Below are positions 7,213 through 63,747 of a stretch of DNA of 64,000 nucleotides, piece by piece. Source of the DNA: Amphiscolops sp. MND2022. Lineage: Eukaryota. Position numbers and translations under genes: made by a program. The notes below the pieces were generated by a model. That model saw only the letters and a program-made list of their open reading frames with translations, had not been told where the DNA came from and searched no databases. Each line of letters starts with the position of its first letter. The first letter of the stretch is position 1. The stretch is from contig OZ076409.1 of assembly GCA_964187785.1 (NCBI GenBank), positions 15,688,001 through 15,752,000 on the forward strand. Direction: 5' to 3'.

Positions 7213-7390
7213 AGTATTTAGAATGATTTCCTAGCTAGCTGCCAAGGCGGTGACGTAGCGTTGGCGGGTATTTGGAGTGATTTCCTAGCTAGCGGCCAAG
7301 GCGGTGACGTAGCGTTGGCGGATATTTGGAATGAAGTTGTAGCTAGCTGCCACGCTAGTGACGTAGTGATGACGAGTATTTTGGAATGAA
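7213..7390. repeat. 54-bp minisatellite (~3 copies); also at ~11356-11533 and ~14420-14597
   Basis: Unit tgatttcctagctagctgccaaggcggtgacgtagcgttggcgggtatttggag starts at 7224, 7278 and 7332. Confidence 0.8.
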
Positions 7391-8012: not shown

Positions 8013-8260
8013 TGACGTTTTGCTGACGTCAATTCCGTTAGCGATTAGCCAACTTCAATTTTATTTGTCACCGTTTTGATGACGTCATTTTCGTTAGCGA
8101 TTAGCCAACTTCAACTTTGTCTGTCACCGTTTTGATGACGTCATTTTCGTTAGGGATTAGCCAACTTCAATTTTGTTTGTCACCGTTTTGATGACGTGAA
8201 TTTCGTTAGCCATTAGCCAACTTCAATTTTGTTTGTCACCGTTTTGGTGACGTCAATTTT
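8013..8260. repeat. 56-bp minisatellite (~4.5 copies); also at ~12156-12403
   Basis: Unit gttagcgattagccaacttcaattttgtttgtcaccgttttgatgacgtcattttc starts at 8037, 8093, 8149 and 8205. Confidence 0.85.
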
Positions 8261-42284: not shown

Positions 42285-43232
42285 CTGAAAAAGAGCAAAG
42301 ATGAACTGGTTTGAGCTAATGACGGTATTAGATTCTTCTTAGACACCATTGAAATTACTCAAAGTTACTTTCGATAAAAAATCCCCTCATGAAATACCCA
42401 TTCAATCCGAGTTCTGCATCCGGAACCATAACAGTGACCGTTCCACGATTCGTACCAAGCTTTCAAGTATTTACAAGATGCGAAGGCGTCTAGAAGATCT
42501 TATTAATTTGAATAATTTATGCAACTTAATTGTCATGCTACAATTATCAGAGAAATCTTAACGGCATTCCGTAATACGAATGGTAGTCTGAGATCCATGA
42601 TTAATCACAATTTTACTACCATACTGTAATAAATGAATTGGACCTCTGATTGCAAAAAATGATTTGGACTCGATTAAAGGAGACCAAAATCTTCTGAACG
42701 AAAGAGTATTTTGGAAAACTGTAAAACTAAAAGTTTAACAAATTTTAACGTTGATTACAAACATTTTTGTCTGAAAATTCTGAGATCAATATACAAAAAC
42801 TTAGAAACTATGCATTTCACTACTAATTTCGTCTCTTACTTGATTTAGTTCAAATTTCGAAAGCCTTGAGCGTTGAAAAAAAATAGTTTTTAATCTTTCG
42901 GACGCTTTTTCAACAAAAGTATCCACTAAAATATTTTTGATTGCAGAACTTTGAAAAGAAACTTTCTTGAACAGGACATTTCAAACAAAGAAACTGAATG
43001 CAATGTATTAAGATAGGGCATAAAATTATTTTTGAAAGAACCCTTATATAATTACAGTTTTCTTCAAGTTTTCTGTAAACAAAACGTATTATCGTCATTA
43101 GTGGATGGATTAGTCTTTGTCAACATTACAAAATTGCAAAATTGCGTCTGTGATACGTCTAATTTTGCAAAAATTTGCTCCTAGATCAAAATTTAGTAGT
43201 AGATACAAGTTGCTGAAAAAGATAATACAAAG

Positions 43233-43967
43233 TGTAGCGATTACCTATCGAGTGCACGATTTCGAAAATTTCGATGAAAATTTCGTTCAAGGGACTATAT
43301 CTCCTCTACTAAAGAGTCATATTCCGCTAGACGGCAGCGTGTCTTTATTCAAGTACCTGCCCACAGAATTGAAGAGAATTTGAGCAAAAGACTCGAGAGA
43401 GACCCCAACCGAACAAGAAGATTGCAGAAAAATACGGCCACTGTCAAAAAAAAAGACTCAAATTCCTGCCAAAACGGACTGAACTTTATTCTAACCAGTG
43501 CTTTCTCCAGCGAAGCGTTACAAGACGCTGTGATTACCAAAATGAGTCAATTAGCTTGACCAAGCATCCGTGCTTGTGTCCCCGGCTAATTGCTGCCTCA
43601 AAAGTGCAAATTATGTAGTAATTTTCGTATTTTCTTGTTGTAACAGCTCGTGAGCTACTCATTTCGATCTCCTGTGTAACTTCGAAAAAACTTGATTTTT
43701 CCTTTCCACCACTTGCATTTTTTAAAGGCTGTCTAAGTGTTGGTTTCGAAGAAAAAGCGTAATGCGCACTACTGATAGCAATTACAGACTGGATCAGGCC
43801 GGCGAGCACTTCACAAGAAGCGGAATCCTCCTCTGACGGGACAGTTTTTACCCGAAAGAGGCAAAATGAGCTCATGGTCATGGGCGCCTGTCCCGGGCAA
43901 ATACCCATATCATGTGTTCCTCTAACTCTTATGGTTACGGCGACAATGGTGAGAGCTTGTCGTTACA
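43233..43967 (+). repeat. 5' LTR
   Basis: TG...CA termini with imperfect terminal inverted repeat (TGTAGCGA vs TGTAACGA). Matches 61728-62462. Confidence 0.95.
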
Positions 43968-43983
43968 TAGAGACATCATTTTT

Positions 43984-44000
43984 TGGCGACCACAGAGGGA
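43984..44000 (+). promoter_or_regulatory. Primer-binding site (tRNA-Arg-like)
   Basis: TGGCGACCACAGAGGGA resembles the complement of the metazoan tRNA-Arg(TCG) 3' end (TGGCGACCACGAAGGGA, recalled). Confidence 0.7.
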
Positions 44001-46358
44001 TCGCTTCGAAGTGCTTCCCTTAATGGTTTTAAAATAGCCGACCCTCTGGTGATTGACGCCAAGTACGACCCGACTCTGATGGAAAGAGGAGAGAAGCAGA
44101 GTTTTTCCATATTTTTACCCTGTGTGTGTTATTGAAGACTTCAACCCCGGTGGATAAAGGTAAATCTTGTAAAAAAGCGTTGTATGTTGTGATTTTCATG
44201 CTTTTTTAGTAGTTGACAGGTAACGATCGAAATAGCCTACCCTCTTAACGGGTCACTCATAAAATTGGTCTAGCAAGCCGCTGGGAGGCTGCTAGAAGTG
44301 TTAACAGGTGTTTTCTAGCCTTTTTCAGCTTTTTATGACCAATGAAGTGAGTGTTGAGAAGAGGATGATCCTTGCTCAGAGGAATCTTACAATCTGCCGA
44401 AACGAGTTATACGACTCACCGATCCCATTTCCCGTACAGGCAACCTAGAGAAATGAAATTTGGTGGAGACGTACTACAAATGCTGACGTGTCTAATGGTG
44501 CAACCTGTTTGTCTCTGGCTGTTCTGGGTGATGAGCAAAAAGAACGAGAAGACACGATTCGTCAGTCCGGGTTGTATGATATTTTTGAGTCAGGTTGAAA
44601 AAATTTTTTGAGTCGCTCAAAATTTTGTGTACGACCATTTGCCAATGTTTTTACGAGCCTTCTGCAACTAAGTGTGTGCTTTTGCACCTATTTTGTGCGA
44701 AAAAAGTGCGTTTTTCATGTATTTTCGACGAAAAGTGCCAAATTTGGCCATTTTGAGGCGAAACACCTACATGAGCGCGAGCGCTCTTGGTGCTAGCCAC
44801 GCACCTGCAGAAATTAAATAAAAGTAGCTCAGGACTCTAACGAGTTCGCAAAAAACGCGACGAAGTACTCAAAGTTGCCCGAGAAGGCACTTAGTATAAG
44901 TTTTGTGAGGAAAAAACCCCGTTTTTGAAAAACTGAACATTTTAGCACTTTGAACTTGTGGGGGAATTTGTGTGGAAGCTTTTAAACACCCCCGTATGGT
45001 TGCAATTAGGTTGGGGTACACCTGCCGGTACCCAACAATACCCATTTTGGTAATTATAACCACTACTTCTTAAAAAAAGTTACGAGAACTGTGATTTTGA
45101 AGTTTTTCTATAGTACTCTTAGAAGAAACCCAACTTGACTATTGACGAACACTTTTACGCTTAGAACAGCCCCAGGGCTATTGTTTTCAGTTTATTCGGT
45201 AAATTTAACGATCTACAGTAAAGACCGCATCCCAAAATTCCTTTTCAGTGCTGAGAAAAGTAGAAAAATGCACTGAAAAACCTCCATTTTCCTAAAATCC
45301 GGACTGTCTCTGAGCTAAGGTCGGGTCATTGATTCTTGGACCTTAGCCAAAAGGTGGTTGCACTTTCATAACCACCACTAAAAATAACGCTAGTGCCGAA
45401 AATTTGGTGGACGTAACTTTCACCAAAATCGAGAAAAGTTCTCTAACATTTCAACTTCAGAGGACTGTAAAACTGCCGAAATAATCTAAAACTGAAGGAC
45501 TGTCGGTGCCTTGTGTTTAACAGACACACCTAATCGAGGGTTTACCCTAGTGCTACGAGTAGTGGGGCAACACGTAGATCCCATTTTTTCAGCCCTACCA
45601 CTTTTTGAGGTGACCCTCTTAGCCAATTTGTAAAAAAAAAAGTAGTCCAAAATTGTTTTTCTTTATGAGTGTTGTCCAAGTAAGGTCGAAACATCAAATA
45701 AGCGTCCGCGCTTTCTTTTGATGGTTTCACCGGCATTGTACACACTCATCGGCTGTAACCACAAAGTTTCATGTCAATCCAACTGGTACTTGATGAGAAA
45801 ATAGAAAAAACGTACCACTCAAAAAGTTGGGCATAGAGGGTAATTTTTCAAATTTTTCCTGAGTGATCCGAGTACCTTAATTGAAAAACGAGGTTGAATT
45901 GCAGTTCATTTCTATCATTTGTACCAGATATTACGTTGTTTTGCAAATTTTGAGCCCGCTAGCTTTTTTCAATGGAGAATAATCTTGAAGTAAGCATGAA
46001 AATTGATGTATCTTGATGACTAAGGGTACCGAACGTCCAGATCAGCCTGAATCTTGAAATAAAAACCTTAGCTTAGACTTAATTTTGCTATCGTGTAGTA
46101 CACCTACCACAAGGTTAGGTGGCCAATTTTCAAGTGTTTCCGACGATTAGACGTTGCGTTCGAGGCATCTTAGTCATTTATAAAGAAATATAAAAAACTC
46201 AAAAATTGTCTAAAAACCCAATTGTTTGCGAATCAGCTATTCCGTAAGCCCCAAACGCACGGTTTCCGGCCCCACACCACGGTATCAACGCGCTGTGTAA
46301 GTTTCACGCCGGTACGACCCCTAGATCGATTTTTGACTTTTTCGAGACGTGCGAAGTC

Positions 46359-49300
46359 ATGAAGCCCAACAGTTTGCGTAACCTTTGGATTTCTATAACG
46401 AGAACATTAAGCCGCACGAACACCCAACGACGCTCTAATCATTCAAAAGGGGGGAGGAAGGACACCTCGCGATGCACTGAAGCATCAAAGACACCAGACC
46501 CAACGGGGTGCGAGACAAATCTCAGTGCGATATCAGACCTGACCTCAGACCCCAGGGAGGAAGATTGGCCAACTGATGACAGTTTCGTTATGGAACCCGA
46601 TTTTTCAGACCCTATGTCAGACGACGCATCGGAGAAGTATCAGGCCAAGCCAATCGCCAGGACTACCGATGATATCGGAGGTTCAGCCGACGAAACAGGA
46701 AGTCAGGCGCACACGTCCAAATGGTTACAAGAACTCACTAAAGTAGCCGTCACACCTTTTGGTACTGACGAAGCAGGAACATGGCCCAATTCCAACAGGA
46801 CAAACGCTGAAGAGGAAGCTGAAATGAGTTGCTTGAATGCCACTGGACAACTCAAAGCTCCCAGCATGGCCAGCGAGAGCACTGCAAACACGGCAGAGAT
46901 ATTGCAACAAATGTCTTATGTCGGGGGTATGAATTATGCCAGGGCACGTCTTCAAGAAGCTACGGCCCCCCGAGCATCTGGGAAGGGTAAGCAAGTACGG
47001 CCTCCAGCCTTACTAGCACAGACCGGCACTACGGGACCTCATGGCGACTCGCGCTCATCCTCACCTTCATCAAAAGCTGCATCTGCCCGATCCTCAGCAT
47101 ATCGAGCCGTACATGAAGCAGCGAAAGCGCGCAAAGCTCTGTTAGATGCCCAGATAGGCGTGAAGCAAGCTGCTTCACAACTGTCTGAGCGTAAAGCAAG
47201 GTGCGATAGAGAGCATCAGTCAATAATGGAGGAGATAGAAGCCGTACAAACTGAACTGCGAACATCAACTGAGCGACAAGCGCAAGGACATGAAATTCAG
47301 GCAGCCCGAATGGATGCCGTGGGTTATCGAATGGCTGAAATAAAGGACATGGTGACCGAAAGAGAGGTGCGCATGGAAGCTCAACTGCAAGAGGTATGTT
47401 CACAGATACAAGCAATGGGCACTATGTTGAAGAATATCCAACCTCAACCCGCACCAGTAAGCAACACTATCAAAGAATTGCTGCAAGACACTGATATATC
47501 ACTGCCAAAACCCATGAAAAGCGTCTCCCTCAAACCAAAAGAGAGTGTGACGATTTCAACAAACCCATCTGGCTCTAAACAACACTTGGCCAGGTACGCG
47601 CCCTTGCCACAAACTCTGGTCTCAAATGGAGAAGCTGCGTCAACATCGACGAAATTTATCCCATCCGCGGTATCAACAAAAAATGTTCCACCCACGACCA
47701 AAACTCACAAGAAAGAACCAACGTGCGAGGTGATAACTATCGACACTTCAAGCATGGGTATCAGCGACCTGCGAGAGCCCACACGCACAAACGTGCTAAC
47801 CGAAGTCACTAGCACCTTCCAAACAGCAAATGCAACTTTGGGAGAATCAGCAGCAGAATTCCAAACCGCGAACGACGAATTACCCCCGGGCAACCCATGC
47901 GCCAGCAGCACTCGACGCCGAGAAGTGACTCTCCCCGAGAACACCGATGACTCTGTCAACTCAACGCGAGGCAGCAGTATCCCGCCACCAGCCATCAGTG
48001 AAGAAGCGCCTATATCACCGGAGCAACTCAGGTTTACCGAGGCAATATCCAAAGCCATGTCCAAGGAACTGGCGCCGCTGATTGCTAATCGAGATCAAAC
48101 TAGGGTGCGCCCTACGATATACAAAGGCACTAAAGATGGTTCTGTCGATGGATGGCTCCCAGTGATGAAGCGATTTCTAGAAAGGGTACATGCAAAATCC
48201 CCAAAGATCGACAGAGCCTGGGCTATCATCGATCACCTGGAAGGAGAGGCAAGAAATTATATAATCAACAAATCTGAACCTGAACGTGACGAGCCCGACA
48301 AGGTATTCTCTCTCTTGGCCAGCAGATTTGGAACCGGTGGAAATCGCATGCACGTCAGGCAAACCTTCATGTCTCGTGTCCAACAGGAAAAAGAGGATTG
48401 GATGCAATTCTTGGACGCATTAGAAGGTCTGCGCACCCAAGGTTTCCCAGACGAGCCTATCACTACGCGTCGTTATGAAATCCTGCAACGTTTTATAGAT
48501 GGTATAAATGACCCGACGCTGCGACGAGAGTTGGCCGTGGTGTACGCTGCAGAGTCATATCTGACCGAGCCACCAACTGTAGAATCCCTAAGGTTCACCA
48601 CGAGACAATTACAACGGCATCGCCCAAACGCGTCAAAACCTTACGACCCAAGGTATGCAATGAGATCGAGGCCTCACCCTTTCGTGCCAGGAAAATTGGT
48701 TCATCCAGCACCAGGCCTACCGCAAAACGTACTACCTCCAAACCAAGGACAACGAGAGGCTAAACCCCAAATGGCTCCACCAGGCCCTGCATCGGTAAAA
48801 CAGGCTCCTGCACAACAGCAACCAGCGAGAGTGATTCCCCAAGGAGCATGCTTCAACTGTGGACTACCAGGTCACTTTGCAAGGGAATGCCCAAGTCGAG
48901 ACCTAGCAAGGAAACCAGCGGCTCGCGCTGCACCCGAAGAGCGAGTAAACTTATGCGAGAATAATGTGGCCTCTGCATGTTCTGGCCCCGTATTCTGTGT
49001 AAATTGTGGCATGACCGAACACTCTGCATCACAGTGCCAAAATGTTCCAGTACATGAGGATTTGGCCTACAGCCTCTGGGCTGAACAGCCATCTGCTTCT
49101 CAAACAATGAGTGACAGCGAAATGGTACTCATGCTTCGCCCTGCTGAAGCCGCTCACGTGACGACGCCCCTTACCGTCACATGTGGCAAAATCCAAATCC
49201 AGACGAACCCGGAGCCAACTACTTTTGATCCCTCGGGACGCACTATCATGTCTGTCCGATTACTATTGGCGATTGAGAGAGAAACCCGCCCAGAACTCAC

Positions 49301-52300
49301 CATAGACGCTCTGATAGACGAGATAACCGCAAACAAGAATTGCCGACAATTGACCCTGCCCCAACCGGAAGAATGGCAGGTAAAAGGCGTCACTTCGACG
49401 TATCATGCCTATTCTCCGATTCCAGTCAAAGTTTGCATAGATGGTGTTGACATGCGTTTTGGTGCCACTATCATTACTGACGCGTTTCCTCCTGGAATCT
49501 GCTTGGGACCGCAGGAGCTGCGCTGCTATAACATTGATGCTCAAGAACCAACTGGTGAAGCGAGAATCGATGAGCGTGCGTCGCTCGTAGTTTCATTCGT
49601 GGTTCCCGATGCTGCTCCCGTGCCATTACGTGGTCTGATAGACACTGGATCAGGAGTGTCCATCCTCACCTTCTCAGCCTACAATCGAGTCGCCGTGCGC
49701 ACTGGGACACTCTTACGACCTTATGGTATTGACTTATATGCCGCGAATGGGAAGACGATCAAAACTTTTGGTCTAGCGGAGAAAGTCAAATTCCAATTGG
49801 GAGGCTACGAATTGGAAACTAACTTCGTGGTAGTCGATGACGCCATGGGAGTGGAAGACTTCCTCCTGGGCAGAAACTTCCTAAGAGCTTATCAAGTCTT
49901 AGTGGATTTAACCGCGATGAAGGTCATTGTCCGAGCTCCGTCTGAACCAGTGTGGTACCATGCCCACACACAAGTAAGTAACGAATCACTCAATTCGTCG
50001 GTAGCGATTGCACAGGACGTAGTGTTGCAACCTTTTGAACGCGCAATACTACGCGCTAAATTGCTTGTAGACAACTTAGAACCTTTCATGTTTCGGACCG
50101 TGCTAATCAATTTTCAAACACCTAACCGAATGTTAAAAAACGCCATCTTTTTAGAGGACACCGTGGCGACCGTGGGGGAGACTGGCTTCCTTTACGTCAG
50201 TTTAGGAAATCTTACCAGCAACGTGCAGCGGATTAAAAAGGGCACCCTTTTAGGAACCGCGGTACCTGTAACGATGGTTCATAAAGCCATCCCCCAAATT
50301 GTCCCCGGACAATCAAGTGAAACTCAGCAGTCAAATGCAAATTATGTTTGTAAAGTTTACGAACAGATGAACCTTGATTCTTCTTCTGAATATAGTTCTT
50401 CATCTGAATTTGAGTTTTTGTCCTCTACCGAACCGTCAGAACTAGGCTTGTCCGAGCGCGAAGTAAAAAGACGAACCGATCCGGCGTTAATGGCTCCGAT
50501 ACCGGGCCCGGAAGCACAACTCGACGAGGTGCGCGGTTTGTGGGGATCGACCGCCAGCGACACGCTTAGTAAACTTTTGAACGAATTTGATGATTTGTTT
50601 ATGAAATTCAAAGCCGACATTGGCAAGTGTAAAATCGCTAAGCACCCGGTGGAAGTAGAGCCAGGGGCTGTACCCCACCGCGAAGGTGCAAGACGAATGT
50701 CGCCTGACAAGGCAGAACGTGCTAACCAAGAAGTTCGTGACTTGCTAGCTTTGGGAATGATACAACCTTCCTTATCCCCTTGGGCGAGTGGAATTGTTAT
50801 GGTCAAAAAGAAGAGTGGTGAATTGCGATTCTGTTGTGATTTTCGGCCACTTAATGAAGTGACCATCAAAGACGCTTATCCCTTGCCACGCATCGATGAA
50901 AGTCTATCCCGATTGGGCAAGGCCAAAATCTATACTAGTATTGACTTGGCATGGGCATTCTGGCAAATTCCTGTCCGAAAAGCCGATCGTCAAAAGACTG
51001 CCTTCGCTTGTGAACTTGGGTTATTTGAGTGGCGGCGTATGCCTTTTGGTATGTGTAACGCATCAGCAACATTTCAACGGGCAATAGCGCGAGCGCTACA
51101 AAGAATAGTGAACCGTGAAGGAAGTATGGTTATGGCCTACATCGATGACATTGTGATTGCTACCGAGACCATCGAGGATCACATGGATAGACTACGCGAA
51201 GTATTCCAATGCCTGCGTGAGGCCGGGTTCAAAATGAGAGTCTCCAAGTGTGACTTCATGAAATCGGAGATCAAATATTTGGGCCGGGTCGTATCCGCAG
51301 ATGGTATCAAGCCAGATCCAAAAGCTGTCACCAAGCTGAAAGAATGGGATATCCCGCGAACCAAGACTGAATTGCAGAGTTTCTTGGGTTTTGCCAACTA
51401 CTATCGGGATTTTATCCCGTGGCATGCAAAACTAGTTGCCCCTTTACACGCGATAACGGGAGGAGCCTCTTCATTTTTATGGGGGGAGGAGCAGCAGCGA
51501 GCCTTCAACAGCATCAAAGTGGCACTAATGGAAGCCACTGCTCTGGCGCAACCCGACACTGAAGGCGAATTTGTTCTCGACACAGATGCTAGTGGTGTAG
51601 CTATATCGGGTATTCTGCACCAATGGCAAGGACCACCTGAGAGTCGCAAACTGCGACCGATTGTATTCGGAAGCAAAAAATTAACTGCTACGCAAGCAAA
51701 GTATGGAGCCCCAAAATTGGAAATGTATGCTGCATACTATTTCATCTTGAAAAACCACAGTTATCTCTGTCCACGAAAGTTCACACTGAGGGTAGATAAT
51801 CAGGCCCTATCCTGGCTAAAAACATATTCGATGGATCAGGCGATTATCGGTCGATGGATTATGGCTCTTGAAAAATATCACTTCAGTATTGAGCACCGAC
51901 CCAGAACGCAACATCGAAATGCTGACGGTCTTAGCAAACGAACAAATGATTACAAAAAACACGAAAAGCAACTAAAGGGTTTACCCGCAATTGCAGACAA
52001 ATGGGATTTCCTATCACAGGAGGAATATAACAAACTCCCGCTAGCCCCATGGTTCGATGTCCACGGACGTGTGATACCAAATCACCCAGAATTGCCTGCA
52101 CACTTGCAGAGGTTGGGTAGCCAAAGTTCACCCGAGACCACAGTTGCCGTTCCCACGCGAAGGAGCGGACGAAGCAAACGAAATGCGACCATACGCGACG
52201 AAGCCATGAGAGCGCCCCTACCTACATTGCCAAAACCAGAATTGACACTGCCTGCCGAACTTTATCCAGAATATCCTGAGGATTGGTTGGAACTGACCGA

Positions 52301-55300
52301 GGAATATCAACGAGACTATTTACTCCCCACGCATGCTGCTAACGTACCATCAAGAACCACTTACCCATTGACGGAAAAGCAAGCAACTAGCACTGCACCA
52401 GAGCACGTGAAACAAGCCGCGTTCGTGGTAAACAGCATATCAATGGAACTGCATGAACATGCTAACACAGTACATGGGTTGAAGGATCTACTACTAGCAC
52501 AAAACCGTGACGTCCATATATTGGCTATCAAGAAATTGGTAATGCAAGAATCAATAGATAATGACGTCTTTCCGGAGAATGTACGTGCCTTTGCCAAAAA
52601 CTACCACAAACAGAAGAAGAACCTTCTACTAATAAACACCAACGGGATTTTGTGTGTAAAATACTCCAAAAGTCAAAGAGCTTTGCATGAACGCCCCTGC
52701 ATGATAGTGATGCCACAATTGTATCAGCATGAGATACTATTCAAGGCCCATGACGCGATGGGACATCAGGGCATCGCGAAAGACTTGGCCAGAATTCAAG
52801 AGCGCCACACTTGGCCAGGCATCCGCCGCACCATTGGACAATACGTCAGCCAATGCATCACTTGTCAACAAGTACGCGACAAGCCTGGTGATGTACGCTT
52901 TCACTTGAAGAATATCCAAAGCGGTTATTTCAACGAGCTAGTCCAATATGACCACATGAAAATTTGTCCCTCTGATGATGGTAACACAGGGATATTGGTT
53001 ATTATCGATCATTTCTCTAAACTCGCAGAAGCTGTGCCGTGCAACCACGATGAGTATGATGCAGCGACCACTTCAAAGTTGTTGTTGCAGAAGTGGTTTG
53101 CCCGCCATGGAACACCGACGAGGATGCAGTCAGACAATGCTCCCAATTTCACCGCGGCAGTATCTGCTGAGTTTATGAAAGCAGCCCAAGTGACCAAAGT
53201 AACCTCAACTGCTGGCCACCCCAGGACTCAAGGGTTGGTAGAGCGACAAAACCGAACGCTACTCACCCTACTGCGTGTATTCTGCTCTAGACGAATGCGT
53301 GACTGGGATCAGTACCTAGATGAAGTTATGGGTGCATACAACTCCACACGTCATGCCACGACTGGATTCTCCCCGTATATGCTGACCAGAGGCATGGAAA
53401 AAGCTATACCCCTGACTTTCTTGTATCCAGAATTTGCAACTCAGTCATTCGAATCACACGAAGCCTATGTGGAACATGTGCTGGCTCGACAACAAGAGAT
53501 TCATGACTTAGTCCGTCGCAACACGCATCAAGCCCAGCAACGACAAAAATTGAAGTACGACAGAGCAATTCGTGCTAAAGCCTACGAAGTGGGCGAACCT
53601 GTTTGGGTATTCTGCCGATACATTCCTCAAAAGGGATCTCCTAAATTGATGAGAGCGTGGCGTGGTCCTCACAAGGTAGCACGAGTGCTACAAGAGGGAC
53701 GTGTCTACATACTTGACACTGGTCAGAAGGTGCATTTCGAACGATTGAAACCGCATCATGGTGGTCCAACAGAATGGGCAGCTGTTCCTGCGCATAACGG
53801 CGAGGTTGCTATCATCATGGACCCTGATCCAGAACAATCCCATGAGGAGGTGAGAGACGATGCTTCGCAACCTTCTTACCGTGCAGAGGAACCAATTTCA
53901 GAAGCCAGTAATGCCTCTTTGCCTTCTCGACAAAGACATTGGATGGACACACGGTTACGCACACACATGCGCGCAGGTGGCAGCCGCCTACACTATCAAC
54001 AATTTGGCTACTCTTCGACTGAGTCTGACGATGAACGTTCTGATGTACTCCTATCGAGTGTTCAGGCCAGTCCTGATGAAAGTGTTATCTTGTCATCACA
54101 TGTAGATGAACCTGCGCCTATTCCCGAAATGCCAATATCACCACTACCTGCTATGGAGGCTCTGTTCTCAGAGAATGAAGCAGTACCCGACGCATTGGAC
54201 ATCACCCCGGATCCTACTATCCACGTACCCACCAAAAGTGCCGCCACCTCTTTGACCGGTACATCCGCCCCATTATTGACAAATCCATCTCTTACGGATA
54301 TGTTGAGTAACTTTCCCATTTGGCCCCTAATCGATGACAATGTTCTCAACCCAACCCTAGACGACAACGGTGCTGAAATACCAACAACCAATAACGAAAA
54401 GGGATCGATTCCCCCTGCGACAGTTCCCACCAACAACAATGCAGCTACTACCACGAAACTCTCCAATGCTCCTAGAGGGCGTGGACCCCGGGGACGTCCG
54501 CCAGGCAGAGCGAGGCCGCGAGCCTCGCTGCCACGTGGTCACCAACGGAGAGGTGCTATTAGAGGCGCTCGCAAAAGAGGCCGTCCCAGAGGTAGACCTC
54601 CTCGTATAACGCACGCCAGACCTAACACTCCTACCCGTGTTCGTAGCACTCCATCTATGGACACTGACTCTTCTGCCCCTAGCGCGGCGGTTACCTCAGA
54701 TCAAGCAGCACCGCCAGAATCAACCAACGCTCGTTATGGACTGCGACACAATCGTATTCCCAGATATCGTTGCGGAACATGTGGCCTACGAGACTGCGAA
54801 TGTAACTACATGGTCCACGCGGGCTTCCCAATCAAACCCCAGGGAGTCCTGCTAGCACGTGAACAGGAAAAATCGCTTCCAAGCGGAACGGTTGACCGTT
54901 TGGTTATTCGGGCCGAGAAGACTTATACTGGGCTACAACGCAGCGACACTCCATATCCCGTGGACTATATCCTATCCAAAATGAAAGATTCTACGATAGC
55001 AAAGGCCCCGTGCCCAAGGTTCAAGGAGTGGACCTATGATCTTGTTGGTTTGGAGTTCACCTTACCCATCACTGTTCCCCCTTTGCCTACAAATATTGCC
55101 TTTGGTCCTTTCAACTACGAGCGAGAGCCTATCCAAATGATACGCTGTATTCCTGCTGACCTCTTGTATGACAAATACAACGTCACCGCAAAACCAGGAG
55201 ACGTTTATCAGCCTACAAGCAACTGGTGGCTACTAGTTACGGCCAAACAAACATCCGACCTGGTTCATCCCTCTAACTTGAACACCTGTCTGGAGAGTTT

Positions 55301-56126
55301 GCGGACGATGGCCTCTCCTGATAGAATCACTTGTTTCCACACCATAGACCTATATCGTGGTAAAATTAAGTTTGAATGGTGGCTGGAACTTATTATAGCG
55401 GTCTTATCGAATTTTTCACGAATCAGATTCCTGGACGAATGGACACACTCATTTCCTAGTTCTGTATCGCTCCAATCGGCCCTGCACGCACTGGATACAT
55501 GGTCCAGGGCTAATATTGATAATCAATCATTGCCGCGATCTGTGTGGCAAGACTTGGGCGCAATCAAAGGCCTCCTCCCGAATACATGTAACGATGCTCT
55601 CTCCAAAGACCCCGGACGAGAGTTAGTGTACCATGGAGCCGTGAGACCTCAATTGGTTGACTATGTGCAGTATGCCAATACGGACTTCCTGCAGACTCCC
55701 CATCACATTGTTTTATGTTGTCCCGCAAATCTGGAAACTAGTTCTGCCGCTCTTCGTTACGTCATTCTTGAGCATGGTGCAGATGCAATCTTTCAACTTC
55801 GACCGGAGGTTGGCAATATTGTAACGCTACCCACATCTTTGATAGACGGCCATCCTCAGACTATCCACCTTTTAATCACACGAGCTACACCTCGCTGCCC
55901 TATGCTCGCTGATATTCTCCTTGGATGTCTTGATCATTTGAAAACGTTACTCGAGCGCTTGGAGGCGATAGAAGTACACTTTGCCATCATTGATCCTGAG
56001 CGCCCAATACGTAATCTTTTCGATTTTTATACCTGTTTGATGGACGTATTCGCCGACACCCCCCTGACCGTCGTTCTTCACGATCGCGTTTACGTATCTA
56101 TTGCAAGCGTCGCTAGCTTTCCGTAA
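46359..56126 (+). CDS. Gag-Pol polyprotein, 3255 aa, with accessory C-terminal domains
   Basis: Capsid-like ~48110-48620. Two CCHC knuckles (48849-48890, 48996-49037). Protease LIDTGS (49641). RT YIDD (51138). RNase H DTDASG...NADGLS (~51570-51935). Integrase HHCC and D(52950)-D(53133)-35-E(53241). GPY/F-like WRGPHKV (~53660). About 780 further aa follow. Confidence 0.97.
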   Translation: MKPNSLRNLWISITRTLSRTNTQRRSNHSKGGRKDTSRCTEASKTPDPTGCETNLSAISDLTSDPREEDWPTDDSFVMEPDFSDPMSDDASEKYQAKPIARTTDDIGGSADETGSQAHTSKWLQELTKVAVTPFGTDEAGTWPNSNRTNAEEEAEMSCLNATGQLKAPSMASESTANTAEILQQMSYVGGMNYARARLQEATAPRASGKGKQVRPPALLAQTGTTGPHGDSRSSSPSSKAASARSSAYRAVHEAAKARKALLDAQIGVKQAASQLSERKARCDREHQSIMEEIEAVQTELRTSTERQAQGHEIQAARMDAVGYRMAEIKDMVTEREVRMEAQLQEVCSQIQAMGTMLKNIQPQPAPVSNTIKELLQDTDISLPKPMKSVSLKPKESVTISTNPSGSKQHLARYAPLPQTLVSNGEAASTSTKFIPSAVSTKNVPPTTKTHKKEPTCEVITIDTSSMGISDLREPTRTNVLTEVTSTFQTANATLGESAAEFQTANDELPPGNPCASSTRRREVTLPENTDDSVNSTRGSSIPPPAISEEAPISPEQLRFTEAISKAMSKELAPLIANRDQTRVRPTIYKGTKDGSVDGWLPVMKRFLERVHAKSPKIDRAWAIIDHLEGEARNYIINKSEPERDEPDKVFSLLASRFGTGGNRMHVRQTFMSRVQQEKEDWMQFLDALEGLRTQGFPDEPITTRRYEILQRFIDGINDPTLRRELAVVYAAESYLTEPPTVESLRFTTRQLQRHRPNASKPYDPRYAMRSRPHPFVPGKLVHPAPGLPQNVLPPNQGQREAKPQMAPPGPASVKQAPAQQQPARVIPQGACFNCGLPGHFARECPSRDLARKPAARAAPEERVNLCENNVASACSGPVFCVNCGMTEHSASQCQNVPVHEDLAYSLWAEQPSASQTMSDSEMVLMLRPAEAAHVTTPLTVTCGKIQIQTNPEPTTFDPSGRTIMSVRLLLAIERETRPELTIDALIDEITANKNCRQLTLPQPEEWQVKGVTSTYHAYSPIPVKVCIDGVDMRFGATIITDAFPPGICLGPQELRCYNIDAQEPTGEARIDERASLVVSFVVPDAAPVPLRGLIDTGSGVSILTFSAYNRVAVRTGTLLRPYGIDLYAANGKTIKTFGLAEKVKFQLGGYELETNFVVVDDAMGVEDFLLGRNFLRAYQVLVDLTAMKVIVRAPSEPVWYHAHTQVSNESLNSSVAIAQDVVLQPFERAILRAKLLVDNLEPFMFRTVLINFQTPNRMLKNAIFLEDTVATVGETGFLYVSLGNLTSNVQRIKKGTLLGTAVPVTMVHKAIPQIVPGQSSETQQSNANYVCKVYEQMNLDSSSEYSSSSEFEFLSSTEPSELGLSEREVKRRTDPALMAPIPGPEAQLDEVRGLWGSTASDTLSKLLNEFDDLFMKFKADIGKCKIAKHPVEVEPGAVPHREGARRMSPDKAERANQEVRDLLALGMIQPSLSPWASGIVMVKKKSGELRFCCDFRPLNEVTIKDAYPLPRIDESLSRLGKAKIYTSIDLAWAFWQIPVRKADRQKTAFACELGLFEWRRMPFGMCNASATFQRAIARALQRIVNREGSMVMAYIDDIVIATETIEDHMDRLREVFQCLREAGFKMRVSKCDFMKSEIKYLGRVVSADGIKPDPKAVTKLKEWDIPRTKTELQSFLGFANYYRDFIPWHAKLVAPLHAITGGASSFLWGEEQQRAFNSIKVALMEATALAQPDTEGEFVLDTDASGVAISGILHQWQGPPESRKLRPIVFGSKKLTATQAKYGAPKLEMYAAYYFILKNHSYLCPRKFTLRVDNQALSWLKTYSMDQAIIGRWIMALEKYHFSIEHRPRTQHRNADGLSKRTNDYKKHEKQLKGLPAIADKWDFLSQEEYNKLPLAPWFDVHGRVIPNHPELPAHLQRLGSQSSPETTVAVPTRRSGRSKRNATIRDEAMRAPLPTLPKPELTLPAELYPEYPEDWLELTEEYQRDYLLPTHAANVPSRTTYPLTEKQATSTAPEHVKQAAFVVNSISMELHEHANTVHGLKDLLLAQNRDVHILAIKKLVMQESIDNDVFPENVRAFAKNYHKQKKNLLLINTNGILCVKYSKSQRALHERPCMIVMPQLYQHEILFKAHDAMGHQGIAKDLARIQERHTWPGIRRTIGQYVSQCITCQQVRDKPGDVRFHLKNIQSGYFNELVQYDHMKICPSDDGNTGILVIIDHFSKLAEAVPCNHDEYDAATTSKLLLQKWFARHGTPTRMQSDNAPNFTAAVSAEFMKAAQVTKVTSTAGHPRTQGLVERQNRTLLTLLRVFCSRRMRDWDQYLDEVMGAYNSTRHATTGFSPYMLTRGMEKAIPLTFLYPEFATQSFESHEAYVEHVLARQQEIHDLVRRNTHQAQQRQKLKYDRAIRAKAYEVGEPVWVFCRYIPQKGSPKLMRAWRGPHKVARVLQEGRVYILDTGQKVHFERLKPHHGGPTEWAAVPAHNGEVAIIMDPDPEQSHEEVRDDASQPSYRAEEPISEASNASLPSRQRHWMDTRLRTHMRAGGSRLHYQQFGYSSTESDDERSDVLLSSVQASPDESVILSSHVDEPAPIPEMPISPLPAMEALFSENEAVPDALDITPDPTIHVPTKSAATSLTGTSAPLLTNPSLTDMLSNFPIWPLIDDNVLNPTLDDNGAEIPTTNNEKGSIPPATVPTNNNAATTTKLSNAPRGRGPRGRPPGRARPRASLPRGHQRRGAIRGARKRGRPRGRPPRITHARPNTPTRVRSTPSMDTDSSAPSAAVTSDQAAPPESTNARYGLRHNRIPRYRCGTCGLRDCECNYMVHAGFPIKPQGVLLAREQEKSLPSGTVDRLVIRAEKTYTGLQRSDTPYPVDYILSKMKDSTIAKAPCPRFKEWTYDLVGLEFTLPITVPPLPTNIAFGPFNYEREPIQMIRCIPADLLYDKYNVTAKPGDVYQPTSNWWLLVTAKQTSDLVHPSNLNTCLESLRTMASPDRITCFHTIDLYRGKIKFEWWLELIIAVLSNFSRIRFLDEWTHSFPSSVSLQSALHALDTWSRANIDNQSLPRSVWQDLGAIKGLLPNTCNDALSKDPGRELVYHGAVRPQLVDYVQYANTDFLQTPHHIVLCCPANLETSSAALRYVILEHGADAIFQLRPEVGNIVTLPTSLIDGHPQTIHLLITRATPRCPMLADILLGCLDHLKTLLERLEAIEVHFAIIDPERPIRNLFDFYTCLMDVFADTPLTVVLHDRVYVSIASVASFP

Positions 56127-56348
56127 AGCTTTTGTTTTTCCGCTTTTTTTTGTTTTTGTTTTTTATCCGCTCGATTAAGTTTAGTGAGTCGACACGGAGT
56201 TTATGTGAAACTGTTACGTTACCATTTTCTTTAATGTTAGTGTGTGACATTATATTACTTTCCCTGATATTACCCTTAAAATGACCTATGGTGTTGCCCA
56301 ACTATCAAGTGTGCTACAATCGACCTGCACTCTTTCAGAATTGTCGTC

Positions 56349-59300
56349 ATGAACCAAGATAACGATAGAAGCAACAACGTCCCGCCAAGGTCTACAGATA
56401 ACTCTCCTGCCTTGGGGCAACGCGTCTATGACACTGCGCGTGTCCAACGCACCCCACAAATTGCCTTTATTCGAGACAGACTCGACCAAGGTCTGTCGCC
56501 AGCTACAGTTGCCGGGGTGGCGGCAATCATTGCCCAGATGGAATCACAATTGCAAGCCCCAATGCTGACGATATCAATTACTTCAGGGTTTCCTGGGTTC
56601 CAACGATCCATGACATACCAAGATGGAGTGTGGCACGGCCATGATCTCACGCATCACTTCACGGATGATCGTGCGGCGATCTCATACAGTCCTGCGAATG
56701 GCGGAGTCCATCAGACTAGACCTCTACAGATCCCTTCTTGCCCGCCTCCACCTCCACCGCCACCTCCTGCATCAACACCACAAGCAGTAGTGCGTGCGCG
56801 CACTCCTGCTCCTACAGTGCCTGACTTGCCCAATCAATCTATGGCGGAGCAAGCAGTCATCTCAGCACTGCAAGCAGTGGCTGCCAACCCCAATTACGAT
56901 GATTTCATGCGATCCATGGAGCAGTGTTGGCCAGAACTACGTCGAATTGCTCTGCCCACTGTCACTATTCGCAACGACAATGTGACTTCAACTGAAACAC
57001 GTCAAGGTGTCATCACTATTCCCCACATCAATCCTCAGTCTGAACAGCCAGGACACTCTCGCACCGTGACTGTAGAGCGCAGTCGTTCGCCTTCCCGCTC
57101 TTCTCAAAAGGGGGGAGGAGAGAGCCGCCCTGCCTCAAGAAAACGCAACGACCCTTCTCCAACAAAAAAGACTCAACAACCACTGACTGCCCGTGACAGT
57201 CCCTCGAGCAAGCCACCACCCGACAAAAAGATCTCCAACGAGAAGGCCACAACCTCCAAAGCGCCAGACCAAACAAAATCAAAAGTGTCGGAAGCATGCG
57301 TGCTTCCCTCACCCCAATCACAACCGGACGTAACAGGCGAACAACAAGGACTGCCGCAACCACCATCCACGCAGTCTACAACACGCGAGTCGCTGGCTCA
57401 ACGAGCGACTCCTAAGCCTTCCACATCAAGACAGCCACAAACGGAGCAAACTGTGGGTTATCAAGGCACCCCTGAATCTCAGCGAACTGTCAAGGACATA
57501 ATGGGTGATTACCCAGGGTTGAAGGTAACCAACAGTGGTCCAACTGGAACCCCACTCCGCAAACAGGCGATTCAACACCCAACTAAGAGAACCTTTACGA
57601 AACAGCCGACGTACCTGAGTCCAATGCAAAACACAAAGGGCACACTGGTCACCAAGGATTCCCGACGTATCTGGGAATCGGCAGTTATAGTATCGCCCGA
57701 ATGGCTATTTGAGAAGAACATGTGTCCTCCGAATGACGAAGAGCATGCGAAATTGAAGAAGGCGAATGTACCTGCATTCATGAATCGTCCAATCCGCCCC
57801 GACCACACCCCTACCAATGAGCCGCCATGGCTAGGGAAGGCAATGAATATGCTGCCAAACGTGGAAGACAATTACTTGGACGCCGTCAACATTGACCTTC
57901 GTGGGCAATTCGCTGATCGATATTTCCTCAACGCTGGAGAGACCTTCGAGATCAACCCACGGTACGCCCGTGACCTCGAAGCCCAGCTACCAATGCCAAA
58001 AGAAAGGTTGCAGCGTGCGCGCTTCGCCTTACTTATAGACTCAACATTCCTCAAGAATGTCCCCATTGACAATGTGCTGTCAGACGTGATGGTTTTTACT
58101 CTACCGCTGTCACGTATTCCCGAGATGGCCGAAGTGTTGGTCACCATGTTTGACCCTGAGATGACAGGAACCTTCAAAGAGCCACCCCCACGCAGAGTGA
58201 TCATCAGCAACGTTTTCGATCACATGGCCTGTGAAGGACTAATGGCCCAGATCGCGAACGTTGAAATTATAAATCCAAGTCCAGCACAGCGAACAACAGT
58301 ACGCAATGCAGCATTGAACATGGCCCGAGCCATGGAAAAAGCCCAAAACATCTTAAAGGATAAACTCAAGGTGCCAGCCCTGTTCGTGACACCCCCAGGT
58401 TTCTGCCAATGGCCTCCCGCCTTGCAGAGATTTATCTACATGGTAACAGAAGTTTGCAAGTGTAGAGAAATAGACTTTGCGATCTGCGCGCCCAATATGC
58501 GGATCGGCTCCAACGACTTTCGTCCCTCCTGGCTTTCCTACATGGGGTATGTTGCCTCAGTGTCTAAAGTGCTACAGTCAGTGGAAAAGACTGGGAACGC
58601 GCAGCTGACAATCGATGATGCCATCTACTTTGATCACGGCACTCGTATGGGATTATTAGTATTCAATAACGACGGAGAAAGGCGAGTCCCAGAACCCAGT
58701 ACGGCTGAATGTGAGGCAATCCGCCTGAATAACTGGATAGAGCGCGCGCGCTCCTCCGGTGGAAAGACTTGCATTAAAACTGATCTTGCGGAAGTCACTG
58801 CCATGATGAGCAAAGTCCCCAGTGACCGAGAAGTAGAACGAGCCATCCCGCGAGTTCAATTTGCCAAGGACCTCACAATTGATCAATTATCAGTGGGAAT
58901 GAAGTACATTGCTGCAAAATTGACGAGCGAGACTCAGGCTGAAATACAAGCCTTCAGCAGCACCTACGACGCCTGGTACCAGCGGCTACAAACTACCACT
59001 GTAGCAGACATTGCAAAAGAACTTGGGATGTCAACCGACCAATTTGCCATCTGTTTGGGATTGGGTTGGAGTCCCGATGTTATTCGAGTTGAGTTCGATT
59101 TAGACGAGAACTGGTTGATCGAAATCAGCAAGATTATCGGTACCATGCAGATAAACGAACTCTTTGCACTGATGCTCACTTTCGGGCAGAAACGCTTTGT
59201 AGCTGGCCCAATGATGATATTAACCGACCTGGTTACCGAGTGTAATCTGGAATGGCTATTTTCATACTTAGTGATTGCACGAGGGAATATCTCAGGCCTC

Positions 59301-60716
59301 GCCGCCTTAGCCAAGTTGTTGCAACGAAAAGACGCTCAGGATTATCCCGCTCACCTGGAGCGCATGACAACTTCGTTACATCACTGGATATATTGCAGTC
59401 TGGTCTTTGCCTCGGGACTTTTCGTGGGGGTGGATAAGCACCAACCATTATATGACGGACGTCAGCTAGTGACCGAGGTAGCCGGATTTTTGACACCTAA
59501 CCAGCTGGCAGATTTCACTTTGGCTGAAGTCGAAGATCTCGTACCGGTGTTAGCACCCGTGCTAACTCCGATATTTGGCCCAACCGGGATACTTCGCTAT
59601 CCCACCAAGCCTCTGCGACTGGCCTCGGAGACACTAACAGTATCCATCCTGACTTATCTGAAGAACGTGAAACCGCACAACTATCAACAGATGCTTGAAC
59701 GTGGGCTGTTTCTGCTAGTACCCCGCATGTATACCACCATAAAGAATGAGACGCAGCAAGACGAAAACCTGGCCGGTATTCTCAAAGCCCGAACAAAGAA
59801 GGCGTGCCCTTTACCTCGCGAATACGGCCCGGTGAATTGGTACAATTCGCCCCTAGATCACCTTGGAATCCCACAGCGATTCAATTGGAGTTTCGCACAC
59901 CTCAGGAAGTACGTGACTGAATGCGTGCAAACCATGGGCGGTCACACAAATCAGGAGTATAATTTTCAAATGATCAAGCTTCCAGCCAGGTACTGGCGAG
60001 GACCCATCGGTTATATCCGGGCTAAGCCAATCAGCATGGTCGAGAAGGGCTTTGATGAGCAGTACGCCTATCGCGATCACTACAAACTAGGCGTGTGGAT
60101 GTCAAGGACCCTGGAGGAACGCCAAGGGCGCCTAAAAGGTTTGATCATCCCCCCACTGACAATGCCTGTTTGGAATCCAGAGGCGAGGGTTACTATGGGA
60201 AGCGACATGCCAGCGGAGACTTGCTACCACGTCATGGAATTGCTGAATGATCCCCTCGGACCCGAATGGGAAGCCTCCAGGCAAATTATAGAACATGCAA
60301 ACAGGGACAACTGGTCCAGAGCCTGCGGGCTCTGGGGCCGACCTGATCTACGTCCGAAACTCAGTGCGAAACAGAAACGACCCATTGCCACCCGCAATAG
60401 ACCGCTGGATCTACCGCACCTGTTTAATGCCAGTAGATTGGATGTGCAGATCCCAATCTCCACGTCGACCACAAGTTCTGCCAATGTTAGCGGCTCAGCC
60501 AATGCAGCGCAAGAACATTCGCCAGAAGCCTCAACTCCTGTAGCCGCAGAAAATGGCCCTAGTGGCTCAAACACGGCTCCCAGGACCCATGAAACTACCA
60601 GCGCCGAACCAAAGCCAGTCCTGCGAGAAGGAAATGCGCGAAGAGGATCTCTATCCGAACTGCAACCAAAGGCCGACGTCTCCCCCAGAGCGCGTCACTC
60701 CTCCGCCACCCAGTAA
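56349..60716 (+). CDS. Second ORF, 1455 aa, function unknown; Pro-rich disordered N-terminus and a central SGNH/GDSL-like fold
   Basis: Uninterrupted 4.4-kb ORF between pol and the 3' LTR. Block-like motifs FALLIDS / VFTLPLSRI / VIISNVFDH / SNDFRPSWLSY at 58020-58573. Confidence 0.85.
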   Translation: MNQDNDRSNNVPPRSTDNSPALGQRVYDTARVQRTPQIAFIRDRLDQGLSPATVAGVAAIIAQMESQLQAPMLTISITSGFPGFQRSMTYQDGVWHGHDLTHHFTDDRAAISYSPANGGVHQTRPLQIPSCPPPPPPPPPASTPQAVVRARTPAPTVPDLPNQSMAEQAVISALQAVAANPNYDDFMRSMEQCWPELRRIALPTVTIRNDNVTSTETRQGVITIPHINPQSEQPGHSRTVTVERSRSPSRSSQKGGGESRPASRKRNDPSPTKKTQQPLTARDSPSSKPPPDKKISNEKATTSKAPDQTKSKVSEACVLPSPQSQPDVTGEQQGLPQPPSTQSTTRESLAQRATPKPSTSRQPQTEQTVGYQGTPESQRTVKDIMGDYPGLKVTNSGPTGTPLRKQAIQHPTKRTFTKQPTYLSPMQNTKGTLVTKDSRRIWESAVIVSPEWLFEKNMCPPNDEEHAKLKKANVPAFMNRPIRPDHTPTNEPPWLGKAMNMLPNVEDNYLDAVNIDLRGQFADRYFLNAGETFEINPRYARDLEAQLPMPKERLQRARFALLIDSTFLKNVPIDNVLSDVMVFTLPLSRIPEMAEVLVTMFDPEMTGTFKEPPPRRVIISNVFDHMACEGLMAQIANVEIINPSPAQRTTVRNAALNMARAMEKAQNILKDKLKVPALFVTPPGFCQWPPALQRFIYMVTEVCKCREIDFAICAPNMRIGSNDFRPSWLSYMGYVASVSKVLQSVEKTGNAQLTIDDAIYFDHGTRMGLLVFNNDGERRVPEPSTAECEAIRLNNWIERARSSGGKTCIKTDLAEVTAMMSKVPSDREVERAIPRVQFAKDLTIDQLSVGMKYIAAKLTSETQAEIQAFSSTYDAWYQRLQTTTVADIAKELGMSTDQFAICLGLGWSPDVIRVEFDLDENWLIEISKIIGTMQINELFALMLTFGQKRFVAGPMMILTDLVTECNLEWLFSYLVIARGNISGLAALAKLLQRKDAQDYPAHLERMTTSLHHWIYCSLVFASGLFVGVDKHQPLYDGRQLVTEVAGFLTPNQLADFTLAEVEDLVPVLAPVLTPIFGPTGILRYPTKPLRLASETLTVSILTYLKNVKPHNYQQMLERGLFLLVPRMYTTIKNETQQDENLAGILKARTKKACPLPREYGPVNWYNSPLDHLGIPQRFNWSFAHLRKYVTECVQTMGGHTNQEYNFQMIKLPARYWRGPIGYIRAKPISMVEKGFDEQYAYRDHYKLGVWMSRTLEERQGRLKGLIIPPLTMPVWNPEARVTMGSDMPAETCYHVMELLNDPLGPEWEASRQIIEHANRDNWSRACGLWGRPDLRPKLSAKQKRPIATRNRPLDLPHLFNASRLDVQIPISTSTTSSANVSGSANAAQEHSPEASTPVAAENGPSGSNTAPRTHETTSAEPKPVLREGNARRGSLSELQPKADVSPRARHSSATQ

Positions 60717-61717
60717 AACAAACCTAACATTGTCGTCATTCGATTTCCAACTTCAATAGTCTTATGCTAGATGAACTTTTGCGAAATCTCATGGTTTCAA
60801 TCTCTGTTGTTGCTAAACTTCGATTATGGAAGTGCCAATTGGTCATGGGTAAAAATCTCCAAGTGGAGATGAAGCCCCCGGGCTTCATCCTCCTTATTAT
60901 TCCGTTTTGGGACCGGCAACCCAACCATGAAACTGCGTCTTTGCCTTGCCTTAGTTAGATGCAATATTCAATTTGCAATTTGTGTTTGCAGTTAGTGCTT
61001 TTTCATGCTACCTTATGCTACATGTGGATGCGCTGTGCGCACTCCGTGCTCTAAATTTTCGGTGCTATTACACCCTTTCAGTTACTAGTTATTGTTTACA
61101 CTGTTGCCATTGTCGAAAAAGACAAAAAGAAAAGATGAAGGAAAAGGAAACAAAAAGGGAGAGATGAGAAATGAATAGAATAAAAAGATTGATGAACCTC
61201 GACCATTGTTTTTCTTGAGCTACCTGATAGGATCGAGAGTAAGTCTCGCAAAAGAAATTTTAAATTGACCGTACTAATTGATTGATTTTATGGCAACTGC
61301 TTACCAAAAGAACTTTTATCAAACGCCAAGCAGTGCGAAGCTCCCGAGCTTCGGAAAATATGTTTCGAACAGTCATGTGATGGTCGTTGACCTTAAAACA
61401 AGTTTTAACACTAACGGCAAATAAAGAATTTTTTTTGAATGGCCGAAAAGAAATTTTAACGCCTGAATTGCTCACGACAGGCTACAAAAAGTAATGACCT
61501 TGCCGTATAAGATTTGTATACAAAATTGTATTGATTTGATCAAAATGCAGCAACGCTGGGTCAAAAACAATTCCACGAGGCCAACTTGACGATGTCTCAA
61601 TGAACTGCCCAGCGCTACTTGATGTGCACTCTACCTCCTCAGTGGGACACAGATGACTCTGGGTACAGACTCGATGACGCCAACCCACACTTGACGGGGA
61701 CGTCAAGACTAGACCCC

Positions 61718-61727
61718 GGGGAGTGTA
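61718..61727 (+). promoter_or_regulatory. Polypurine tract (short)
   Basis: GGGGAGTGTA immediately before the 3' LTR. Confidence 0.6.
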
Positions 61728-62462
61728 TGTAGCGATTACCTATCGAGTGCACGATTTCGAAAATTTCGATGAAAATTTCGTTCAAGGGACTATATCTCCT
61801 CTACTAAAGAGTCATATTCCGCTAGACGGCAGCGTGTCTTTATTCAAGTACCTGCCCACAGAATTGAAGAGAATTTGAGCAAAAGACTCGAGAGAGACCC
61901 CAACCGAACAAGAAGATTGCAGAAAAATACGGCCACTGTCAAAAAAAAAGACTCAAATTCCTGCCAAAACGGACTGAACTTTATTCTAACCAGTGCTTTC
62001 TCCAGCGAAGCGTTACAAGACGCTGTGATTACCAAAATGAGTCAATTAGCTTGACCAAGCATCCGTGCTTGTGTCCCCGGCTAATTGCTGCCTCAAAAGT
62101 GCTAATTATGTAGTAATTTTCGTATTTTCTTGTTGTAACAGCTCGTGAGCTACTCATTTCGATCTCCTGTGTAACTTCGAAAAAACTTGATTTTTCCTTT
62201 CCACCACTTGCATTTTTTAAAGGCTGTCTAAGTGTTGGTTTCGAAGAAAAAGCGTAATGCGCACTACTGATAGCAATTACAGACTGGATCAGGCCGGCGA
62301 GCACTTCACAAGAAGCGGAATCCTCCTCTGACGGGACAGTTTTTACCCGAAAGAGGCAAAATGAGCTCATGGTCATGGGCGCCTGTCCCGGGCAAATACC
62401 CATATCATGTGTTCCTCTAACTCTTATGGTTACGGCGACAATGGTGAGAGCTTGTCGTTACA
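61728..62462 (+). repeat. 3' LTR
   Basis: 735 bp. One substitution seen versus the 5' LTR (gtgcaaatt vs gtgctaatt). Confidence 0.95.
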
Positions 62463-63747
62463 AAGCTCCAAAATTGTTTGCAAAACAGATTCTGAAGTGT
62501 TTTCACAAATTTAATAATATTTGATCAAGCGTTTTTTGATTACCTTCAAAATCATTCGGGTTTCGAGCTAATTTATTTTCAGACCAAATCATTTTTTACA
62601 ATCAGGGGTCCAATTCATTTATTACAGTATGGTACGTTTTCACTGCGATAAAAACTATAGTATTGCGTCGAGTGAATAAAATCAGCATCCAAAGGAGTTA
62701 GCAAATAAGAATCACCAACGACTCATTCAAATTAAACAAACGACGACCAAAGAATGTTACATGTGCACAAAATCATATGCGGCGTTCGCTTCCACTTTCA
62801 ACCCAAGCTACCATTTCGTTAACATTAGTTGAGATTTGCTGTAACAAGCTAATCAATTTCTACTGGTTGTTCGTTCAACATATGCTTCATTTAACGCGGA
62901 ACGGTGTATGTGGGGAAACATGTACACTTTTTTGTTTGTACCTGTAACTGAAGGACCAAAGAGTTGAATAGAAGGGTCACTTGTTCATTAGAATGCGATT
63001 GCGTTTAGCGCCGCGCATCCAACTTGAAAGGCACGAGAAAGTAACATAAAGAACACAATGGAAAAATCTTGAACGGATTGGAATTACAAATTTAGGTCGG
63101 TCTTACAGCCACAAACGTCAAAGATACTGCAGCGTTCGGCAGTTTTTTTGACGCTTTATCATCTCTTAGAAAAACGATGTTGATAGGATTTAAGCATGTG
63201 ATCAAAAAAACTGCCGCACTCTACATCATCTTTGACGTATTTGGTGGCTGTCAGGCCTTACATTTGTAAGACCAATAAATTCATGTTTTATGTGATACTT
63301 AAATTGTTACTGAAAAATTATATTGATAAGAATCAACCTCTCGTGGTAAGATCACGATTGGCAGTTTTGGCAATATAATTGAAGTATACCCAACTGGAAT
63401 CAGTCATTCGTATCAGATCAAAAAATACCGTAAAATACAGAATACCGTAAACCCCTTGGAAAATTTTACAATGCATTTTGAAAGTTGTGAATGATTTATT
63501 TTCGTATTATGACTTGAATTCTCACAATATTAGCATCGCGGATATGCTGTTTTCGGTCACATCTCGTATAATCTCGGAGTATTTGACCTCGGAAACATCT
63601 TTGGTGAAAACAATTCAAACGTTTGATTGAAACATTTGTCGATAAAAAATTCCTTTCCTCAGAATGAAAAAGTGTTCAAAGGAGGGATGTTTTTTCCCAA
63701 AAAAGCAGTCAAATGGTTGTTCATCAACAGTTTATATCAAGGCTAAC

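Follow-up and report, generated by a model that had tools for sequence, protein, structure and literature searches.

In this study, we describe a long terminal repeat (LTR) retrotransposon whose Gag-Pol polyprotein is predicted to end in two tandem macrodomain folds of the TARG1 type, both lacking the catalytic pair and the glycine loops of TARG1 and hence likely non-enzymatic. The element was found in the genome of Amphiscolops sp. MND2022, in a stretch of 64,000 nucleotides (contig OZ076409.1, positions 15,688,001 to 15,752,000 of the forward strand, assembly GCA_964187785.1) that we call the window, where it occupies positions 43233-62462 as an intact copy with 735-bp LTRs of 99.86% mutual identity. 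Its two macrodomain repeats lie as follows:

55083..55439, + strand: macrodomain repeat 1, a predicted, shortened TARG1-type fold
55647..56087, + strand: macrodomain repeat 2, a predicted, full TARG1-type fold

When known structures were ranked against the predicted structures of the two repeats, TARG1, DarG, Bt_1257, and Poa1p filled the top five places for both models, and both models show the minimal macrodomain fold. Independently of folding, repeat 2 matches the TARG1-like profile (probability 95%, P 1.6e-8, 131 profile columns, with 0 of 40 shuffles as good). Repeat 1 matches this profile weakly when compared directly (1 of 40 shuffles reached its score), and its kinship with TARG1 runs via repeat 2. 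A preliminary description of this DNA, made from the sequence alone, had proposed a tandem TARG1-like macro fold at the C terminus of Pol, fused downstream of the integrase; the structure ranking, with macro-fold matches for both repeats and the TARG1 class on top, and the profile match of repeat 2 bear this out, and both repeats do lie in the same Gag-Pol open reading frame (ORF). The structure ranking, the folding-independent match of repeat 2, and the strong purifying selection described below already largely refute the idea that the repeats are decaying remnants, or an unrelated alpha/beta fold merely resembling a macrodomain, which we regard as very improbable.

The two repeats are also related to each other. 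Their profiles matched with a probability of 65-80%, and with one of 33% in a thinned run, where the score still lay above 40 of 40 shuffles. The repeat 1 profile scored more than 8 bits on 59 of 111 repeat 2 sequences, and the repeat 2 profile did so on 69 of 146 repeat 1 sequences, with no reversed sequence reaching this score in either direction; the TARG1-like profile exceeded it on 39 of the 111 repeat 2 sequences and on only 3 of the 146 repeat 1 sequences. These counts place repeat 1 nearer to repeat 2 than to intact TARG1-like domains. Common to both repeats are an Asp at the first Gly of the GCGLD loop and an Arg three residues further. In the simplest history, the ancestor would have taken up an intact TARG1-like eraser of the kind seen in other Gypsy elements, the phosphate loop would have been remodelled after this capture, and the duplication of the domain would have come last.

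Catalysis by TARG1 relies on Lys84 and Asp125, and the diphosphate sits between two loops (PMC9411070 and PMC7050489, of which the latter writes residue 125 as Glu125; here and below, papers are cited for selected sections). We assigned these positions and those of the loops through alignments with TARG1-like proteins and counted residues after thinning each alignment set at 80% identity, which left 42 of 146 rows of repeat 1, 42 of 111 of repeat 2, and 22 of 35 of the TARG1-like domains. The Lys84 position holds Lys in 22/22 TARG1-like sequences, Arg in 38/42 sequences of repeat 2, and Ala or Ser in 36/41 of repeat 1; the Asp125 position holds Asp in 22/22, Pro (18/33) or Ser (9/33) in repeat 2, and Gly (33/37) in repeat 1. 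Both glycine loops, almost invariant in the TARG1-like set, give way to conserved bulky or charged residues. In both repeats, D-x-x-R stands in place of GCGL (with Asp for the first Gly in 34/36 sequences of repeat 2 and 33/38 of repeat 1, and Arg three residues on in 29/33 and 31/37, respectively), whereas in loop 1 the Gly is replaced in repeat 2 and a stretch of ∼20 residues around the loop is deleted in repeat 1. The Asp that follows strand 1 of the macrodomain, which we take to be the adenine-reading residue, is absent from repeat 1. Accordingly, in repeat 1 of the window copy, Lys84 corresponds to Ala and GCGLD to D-x-x-R-G, and the adenine-side Asp is missing; repeat 2 of this copy has the adenine-side Asp (55683), Arg at the Lys84 position (55881), and D-P-E-R-P at 55992-56006. 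The counts agree with the earlier observation that the GAGIA and GCGLD loops are missing, and the loss of Lys84, Asp125, and the glycine loops supports the accompanying suggestion of divergent or pseudo-enzymatic domains.

The module closes a Gag-Pol with the order CCHC knuckle, protease, reverse transcriptase (RT), RNase H, integrase, and long tail. Its TG...CA LTR ends and its Pol order of protease, RT, RNase H, and integrase mark the element as Ty3/Gypsy. Besides the two repeats, it has the following features (dN/dS, ratio of nonsynonymous to synonymous divergence; pLDDT, per-residue confidence of the predicted structure):

43233..43967, + strand: 5' LTR, 735 bp, TG...CA, with a 3-bp target duplication (43230-43232) directly upstream
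46248..56126, + strand: Gag-Pol in one ORF, 3,292 amino acids (aa) from stop to stop, read with Pfam
52713..53222, + strand: integrase H2C2 and catalytic core (Pfam PF17921, E 9.7e-15; PF00665, E 3.1e-8)
54474..54605, + strand: Arg/Gly/Pro-rich basic patch with AT-hook-like motifs, inside a low-complexity linker, from sequence reading
54768..54803, + strand: four-Cys cluster, C-x2-C-x4-C-x-C, kept in families A, B, and C; possibly a zinc site
54954..55079, + strand: conserved segment preceding repeat 1 in alignments, dN/dS 0.04-0.06 between subfamilies, pLDDT low across most of it
55470..55571, + strand: conserved inter-repeat linker, two predicted helices, low pLDDT, dN/dS 0.06-0.07
56079..56108, + strand: hydrophobic tail behind repeat 2, highly conserved in alignments
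56280..60716, + strand: ORF2, 1,478 aa, in families A and B
61728..62462, + strand: 3' LTR, with a 3-bp target duplication (62463-62465) directly downstream

A survey of homologous elements for the tandem arrangement found the module in several families of the same genome. All 105 scored matches to the family of the window copy, of 4,545 candidates, were 97-100% identical, and related families occur at ∼82%, 52%, 41%, and 40% identity; in two of these, one full copy each was examined, and its Gag-Pol (3,115 or 3,192 aa) terminates with the module. Comparison of the window copy with the 82% subfamily gave a dN of ∼0.10 and a proportion of synonymous differences (pS) of 0.65-0.83, with synonymous sites near or at saturation. 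Between subfamilies, dN/dS was 0.04-0.05 for repeat 2 and not computable through saturation for repeat 1; pooled within the family over 29 copies, pN/pS was 0.16 and 0.24. These values indicate strong purifying selection on the module, which is also the fastest changing of three regions compared between families (43-64% identity, versus 67-88% for the integrase and 81-94% for RT). A profile search among 1.84 billion representatives yielded 402 matches; in the one divergent match examined (P0151), both repeats are present at 31% identity, and its best match to this genome is 36%, so that the tandem module probably exists in another species as well.

Given its position in Pol, the precedent of the chromodomain, and selection in the absence of catalytic residues, we tentatively favor, at somewhat less than an even chance, the reading that the pair is a non-enzymatic docking module on the integrase tail. 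It adjoins the AT-hook-like motifs and follows the integrase tail, the place of the chromodomain in chromoviruses. The module would stay attached to the integrase after polyprotein processing, a new protein or nucleic-acid ligand would replace ADP-ribose, and the integration complex would be kept on host chromatin, or on a chromatin protein, by the module together with the basic, AT-hook-like linker. The basic patch was found in families B and C too, and Pfam AT_hook matched it at E 0.2 only, in 3 of 60 homologues. A more specific proposal, possible but doubtful, is that a captured ADP-ribose eraser is now a reader, duplicated and without catalysis, whose new pocket is formed by D-x-x-R. Such a reader would tether integration by means of a macrodomain, as a counterpart of the chromodomain convergent with the coronavirus SUD pair, in an intasome with a 3-bp stagger.

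Several observations weigh against docking. Because ∼330 residues of low-complexity linker lie between integrase and module, the protease may cut the module off the integrase. Both repeats are neutral to acidic (isoelectric points of 6.1 for repeat 1 and 5.1 for repeat 2 in the window copy), which disfavors the view that the folds themselves bind DNA or RNA directly. The structure prediction does not fix how the repeats are placed relative to each other (predicted template modeling score, 0.45), and no common insertion-flank motif was evident by eye among 14 paired copies on nine chromosomes, an absence that neither supports nor excludes chromatin tethering. A dead pair that is cut from Pol, or active in the cytoplasm or the particle, could bind element RNA or a host translation or silencing factor in the manner of SUD. 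We consider this unlikely: neither strand of the element shows a G-quadruplex pattern, neither domain is basic, and SUD structures rank far below TARG1, which makes the likeness to SUD one of analogy, not kinship.

Two more points against docking concern the pocket. The adenine-side Asp is kept in repeat 2 (31/35 sequences; invariant in alignment A1), as expected if this domain binds nucleotides, and SCO6735, an ALC1-like hydrolase, is active although it has neither Lys84 nor Asp125 (PMC9411070, PMC7050489), so that loss of the Lys/Asp pair alone is no proof of inactivity. The retained Asp fits a reading in which at least one repeat, the second, has kept its binding to ADP-ribose or to ADP-ribosylated targets and serves as a reader or decoy that guides integration or blunts PARP defence. 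The same reading gains from the conservative change of Lys to Arg, which would stop catalysis and could keep binding, and from another Gypsy of this genome with an intact TARG1-like domain at the corresponding place in Pol, which suggests that ADP-ribose matters to such elements. It is nevertheless rather unlikely in our view, as neither repeat retains either glycine loop and one of the loops has given way to a conserved Asp where canonical domains contact the diphosphate (loop role from PMC9411070); repeat 1 is, in addition, without the adenine-side Asp and some of loop 1, and in the X-domain of IBV a single change of Gly to Ser was reported with loss of binding (PMC2674928). Compared with the loss of the Lys/Asp pair, the loss of both loops is the stronger case for inactivity, since coronavirus SUD has lost the glycine stretch and, with it, measured ADP-ribose binding (PMC2674928). 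We infer that the repeats do not hydrolyze ADP-ribose and bind it weakly or not at all; on these grounds, their earlier designation as ADP-ribose-binding modules is doubtful. It is improbable, too, that the module is a hydrolase kept active by a rebuilt site, with the conserved Asp/Arg loop and neighboring His and Cys residues in place of the Lys/Asp pair, maybe for another substrate. Mechanisms are plastic within the ALC1-like class (the Asp is missing in DarG, both residues in SCO6735) and the replacement residues here are strongly conserved, but the TARG1-like set keeps both glycine loops, SCO6735 still positions the diphosphate with Gly, and the residue at the Lys84 position differs between the two repeats.

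The clade further stands out by its target duplications. In family A, duplications of 3 bp flank 14 of 14 paired copies (read by eye among 30 LTR loci, two of them unpaired), and none match at 4 bp; in families B and C, 5 of 7 copies have a 3-bp duplication and the other two are mismatched. Our literature search found no report of 3-bp target duplications in Gypsy elements, and filters on duplication length would miss such elements. Between the 5' LTR and a TGG primer-binding-like motif (window 43968-43995), families A, B, and C have a spacer of 15-16 nucleotides that ends in a T run; this is unusually long for a spacer before the primer-binding site and may bear on the processing of cDNA ends. 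Gypsy families usually give duplications of 4 bp (PMC3276498, PMC2582038), and the clade departs from this trait, which is typical rather than a strict criterion.

Downstream of Pol, ORF2 has no family match in profile searches of Pfam and PDB, which also did not confirm the SGNH-like appearance that its middle part has by eye. No match to ORF2 follows Pol in 4 of 4 family C copies, and it is thus not an obligate partner of the module. Between protease and RT (window ∼49995-50280, Pol ∼1250-1345), a beta-rich segment without a Pfam hit looks like a degenerate dUTPase by eye and is 31-53% identical across families. The non-coding left part of the window holds segmental tandem duplications (∼4.1 kb and ∼1.5 kb) as well as 56-bp tandem arrays and near-perfect long palindromes, at 5064-14830, 36121-39049, and 2208-3938.

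The preliminary description was right to be cautious about novelty. In the same genome (1.07 Gb, which also has a macroH2A-like gene), one intact TARG1-like domain (E 1e-27 against TARG1 for L035) ends the Pol of an env-bearing Gypsy (L035/L037/L038). As in the clade described here, it lies behind the integrase and a linker; it differs in being single and in keeping its catalytic and loop residues, and its Pol is only 22-26% identical to that of the tandem-module clade. This family (L037:3240-10000 and L038:1-5070, G000:C12) has Gag and Pol and two further ORFs, one antisense (382 aa) and one env-like (783 aa), and one copy has an apparent 5-bp target duplication. Macro domain ORFs are also mentioned for fish epsilon-like endogenous retroviruses (PMC4977317). 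Elsewhere, TARG1-like domains are fused to DNA ligase III/BRCT domains (P0290-P0294, P0296, P0298) or to PF10686 domains (P0295, P0299, P0300), and one occurs in a protein whose name assigns it to a crayfish-associated tombus-like virus (P0301). Our literature search, which left most subscription journals outside its coverage, found no tandem or dead macrodomain pair in retroelements. Single macro domains in retroelements are thus already known, and the tandem, residue-stripped pair is apparently a new variant. If the docking reading is true, captured macrodomains have a second fate besides that of intact erasers, namely, as dead duplicates kept by selection for binding. As different Gypsy lineages of a single genome have the intact single domain and the dead pair at the same place in Pol, a direct comparison could ask whether ADP-ribosylation acts on retrotransposons and which ligand replaces ADP-ribose. 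Since the clade is very abundant here and not detected by Pfam, similar modules have probably been overlooked elsewhere.

Human TARG1/OARD1 (PDB 2LGR, 4J5R) and the ALC1-like class (DarG, Bt_1257/SCO6735, Poa1p) share the minimal macrodomain fold with the repeats described here, which differ in being tandem, in lacking Lys84, Asp125, and both glycine loops, in their low identity (14-17%), in the ∼20 residues by which repeat 1 is shorter, and in their location in a retroelement polyprotein. Coronavirus SUD-N/SUD-M (Mac2/Mac3 of nsp3) offers another tandem of macrodomains in a polyprotein without the glycine stretch, and such viral tandems bind nucleic acid, not ADP-ribose (PMC2674928), which gives the docking reading a precedent; SUD belongs to another macrodomain subclass and to an RNA virus, and it binds G-quadruplexes via lysines, unlike the neutral to acidic repeats here. 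In chromoviruses, a chromatin-reading chromodomain stands behind the integrase in Gypsy Pol (bioRxiv 10.1101/2021.11.30.470311); Pfam gave no Chromo match in our element at E up to 10. The module here has a macro fold instead, lies ∼500 residues past the integrase, and its binding to chromatin is hypothetical, whereas the architecture is common to both, with an accessory module C-terminal to the integrase of a Gypsy Pol.
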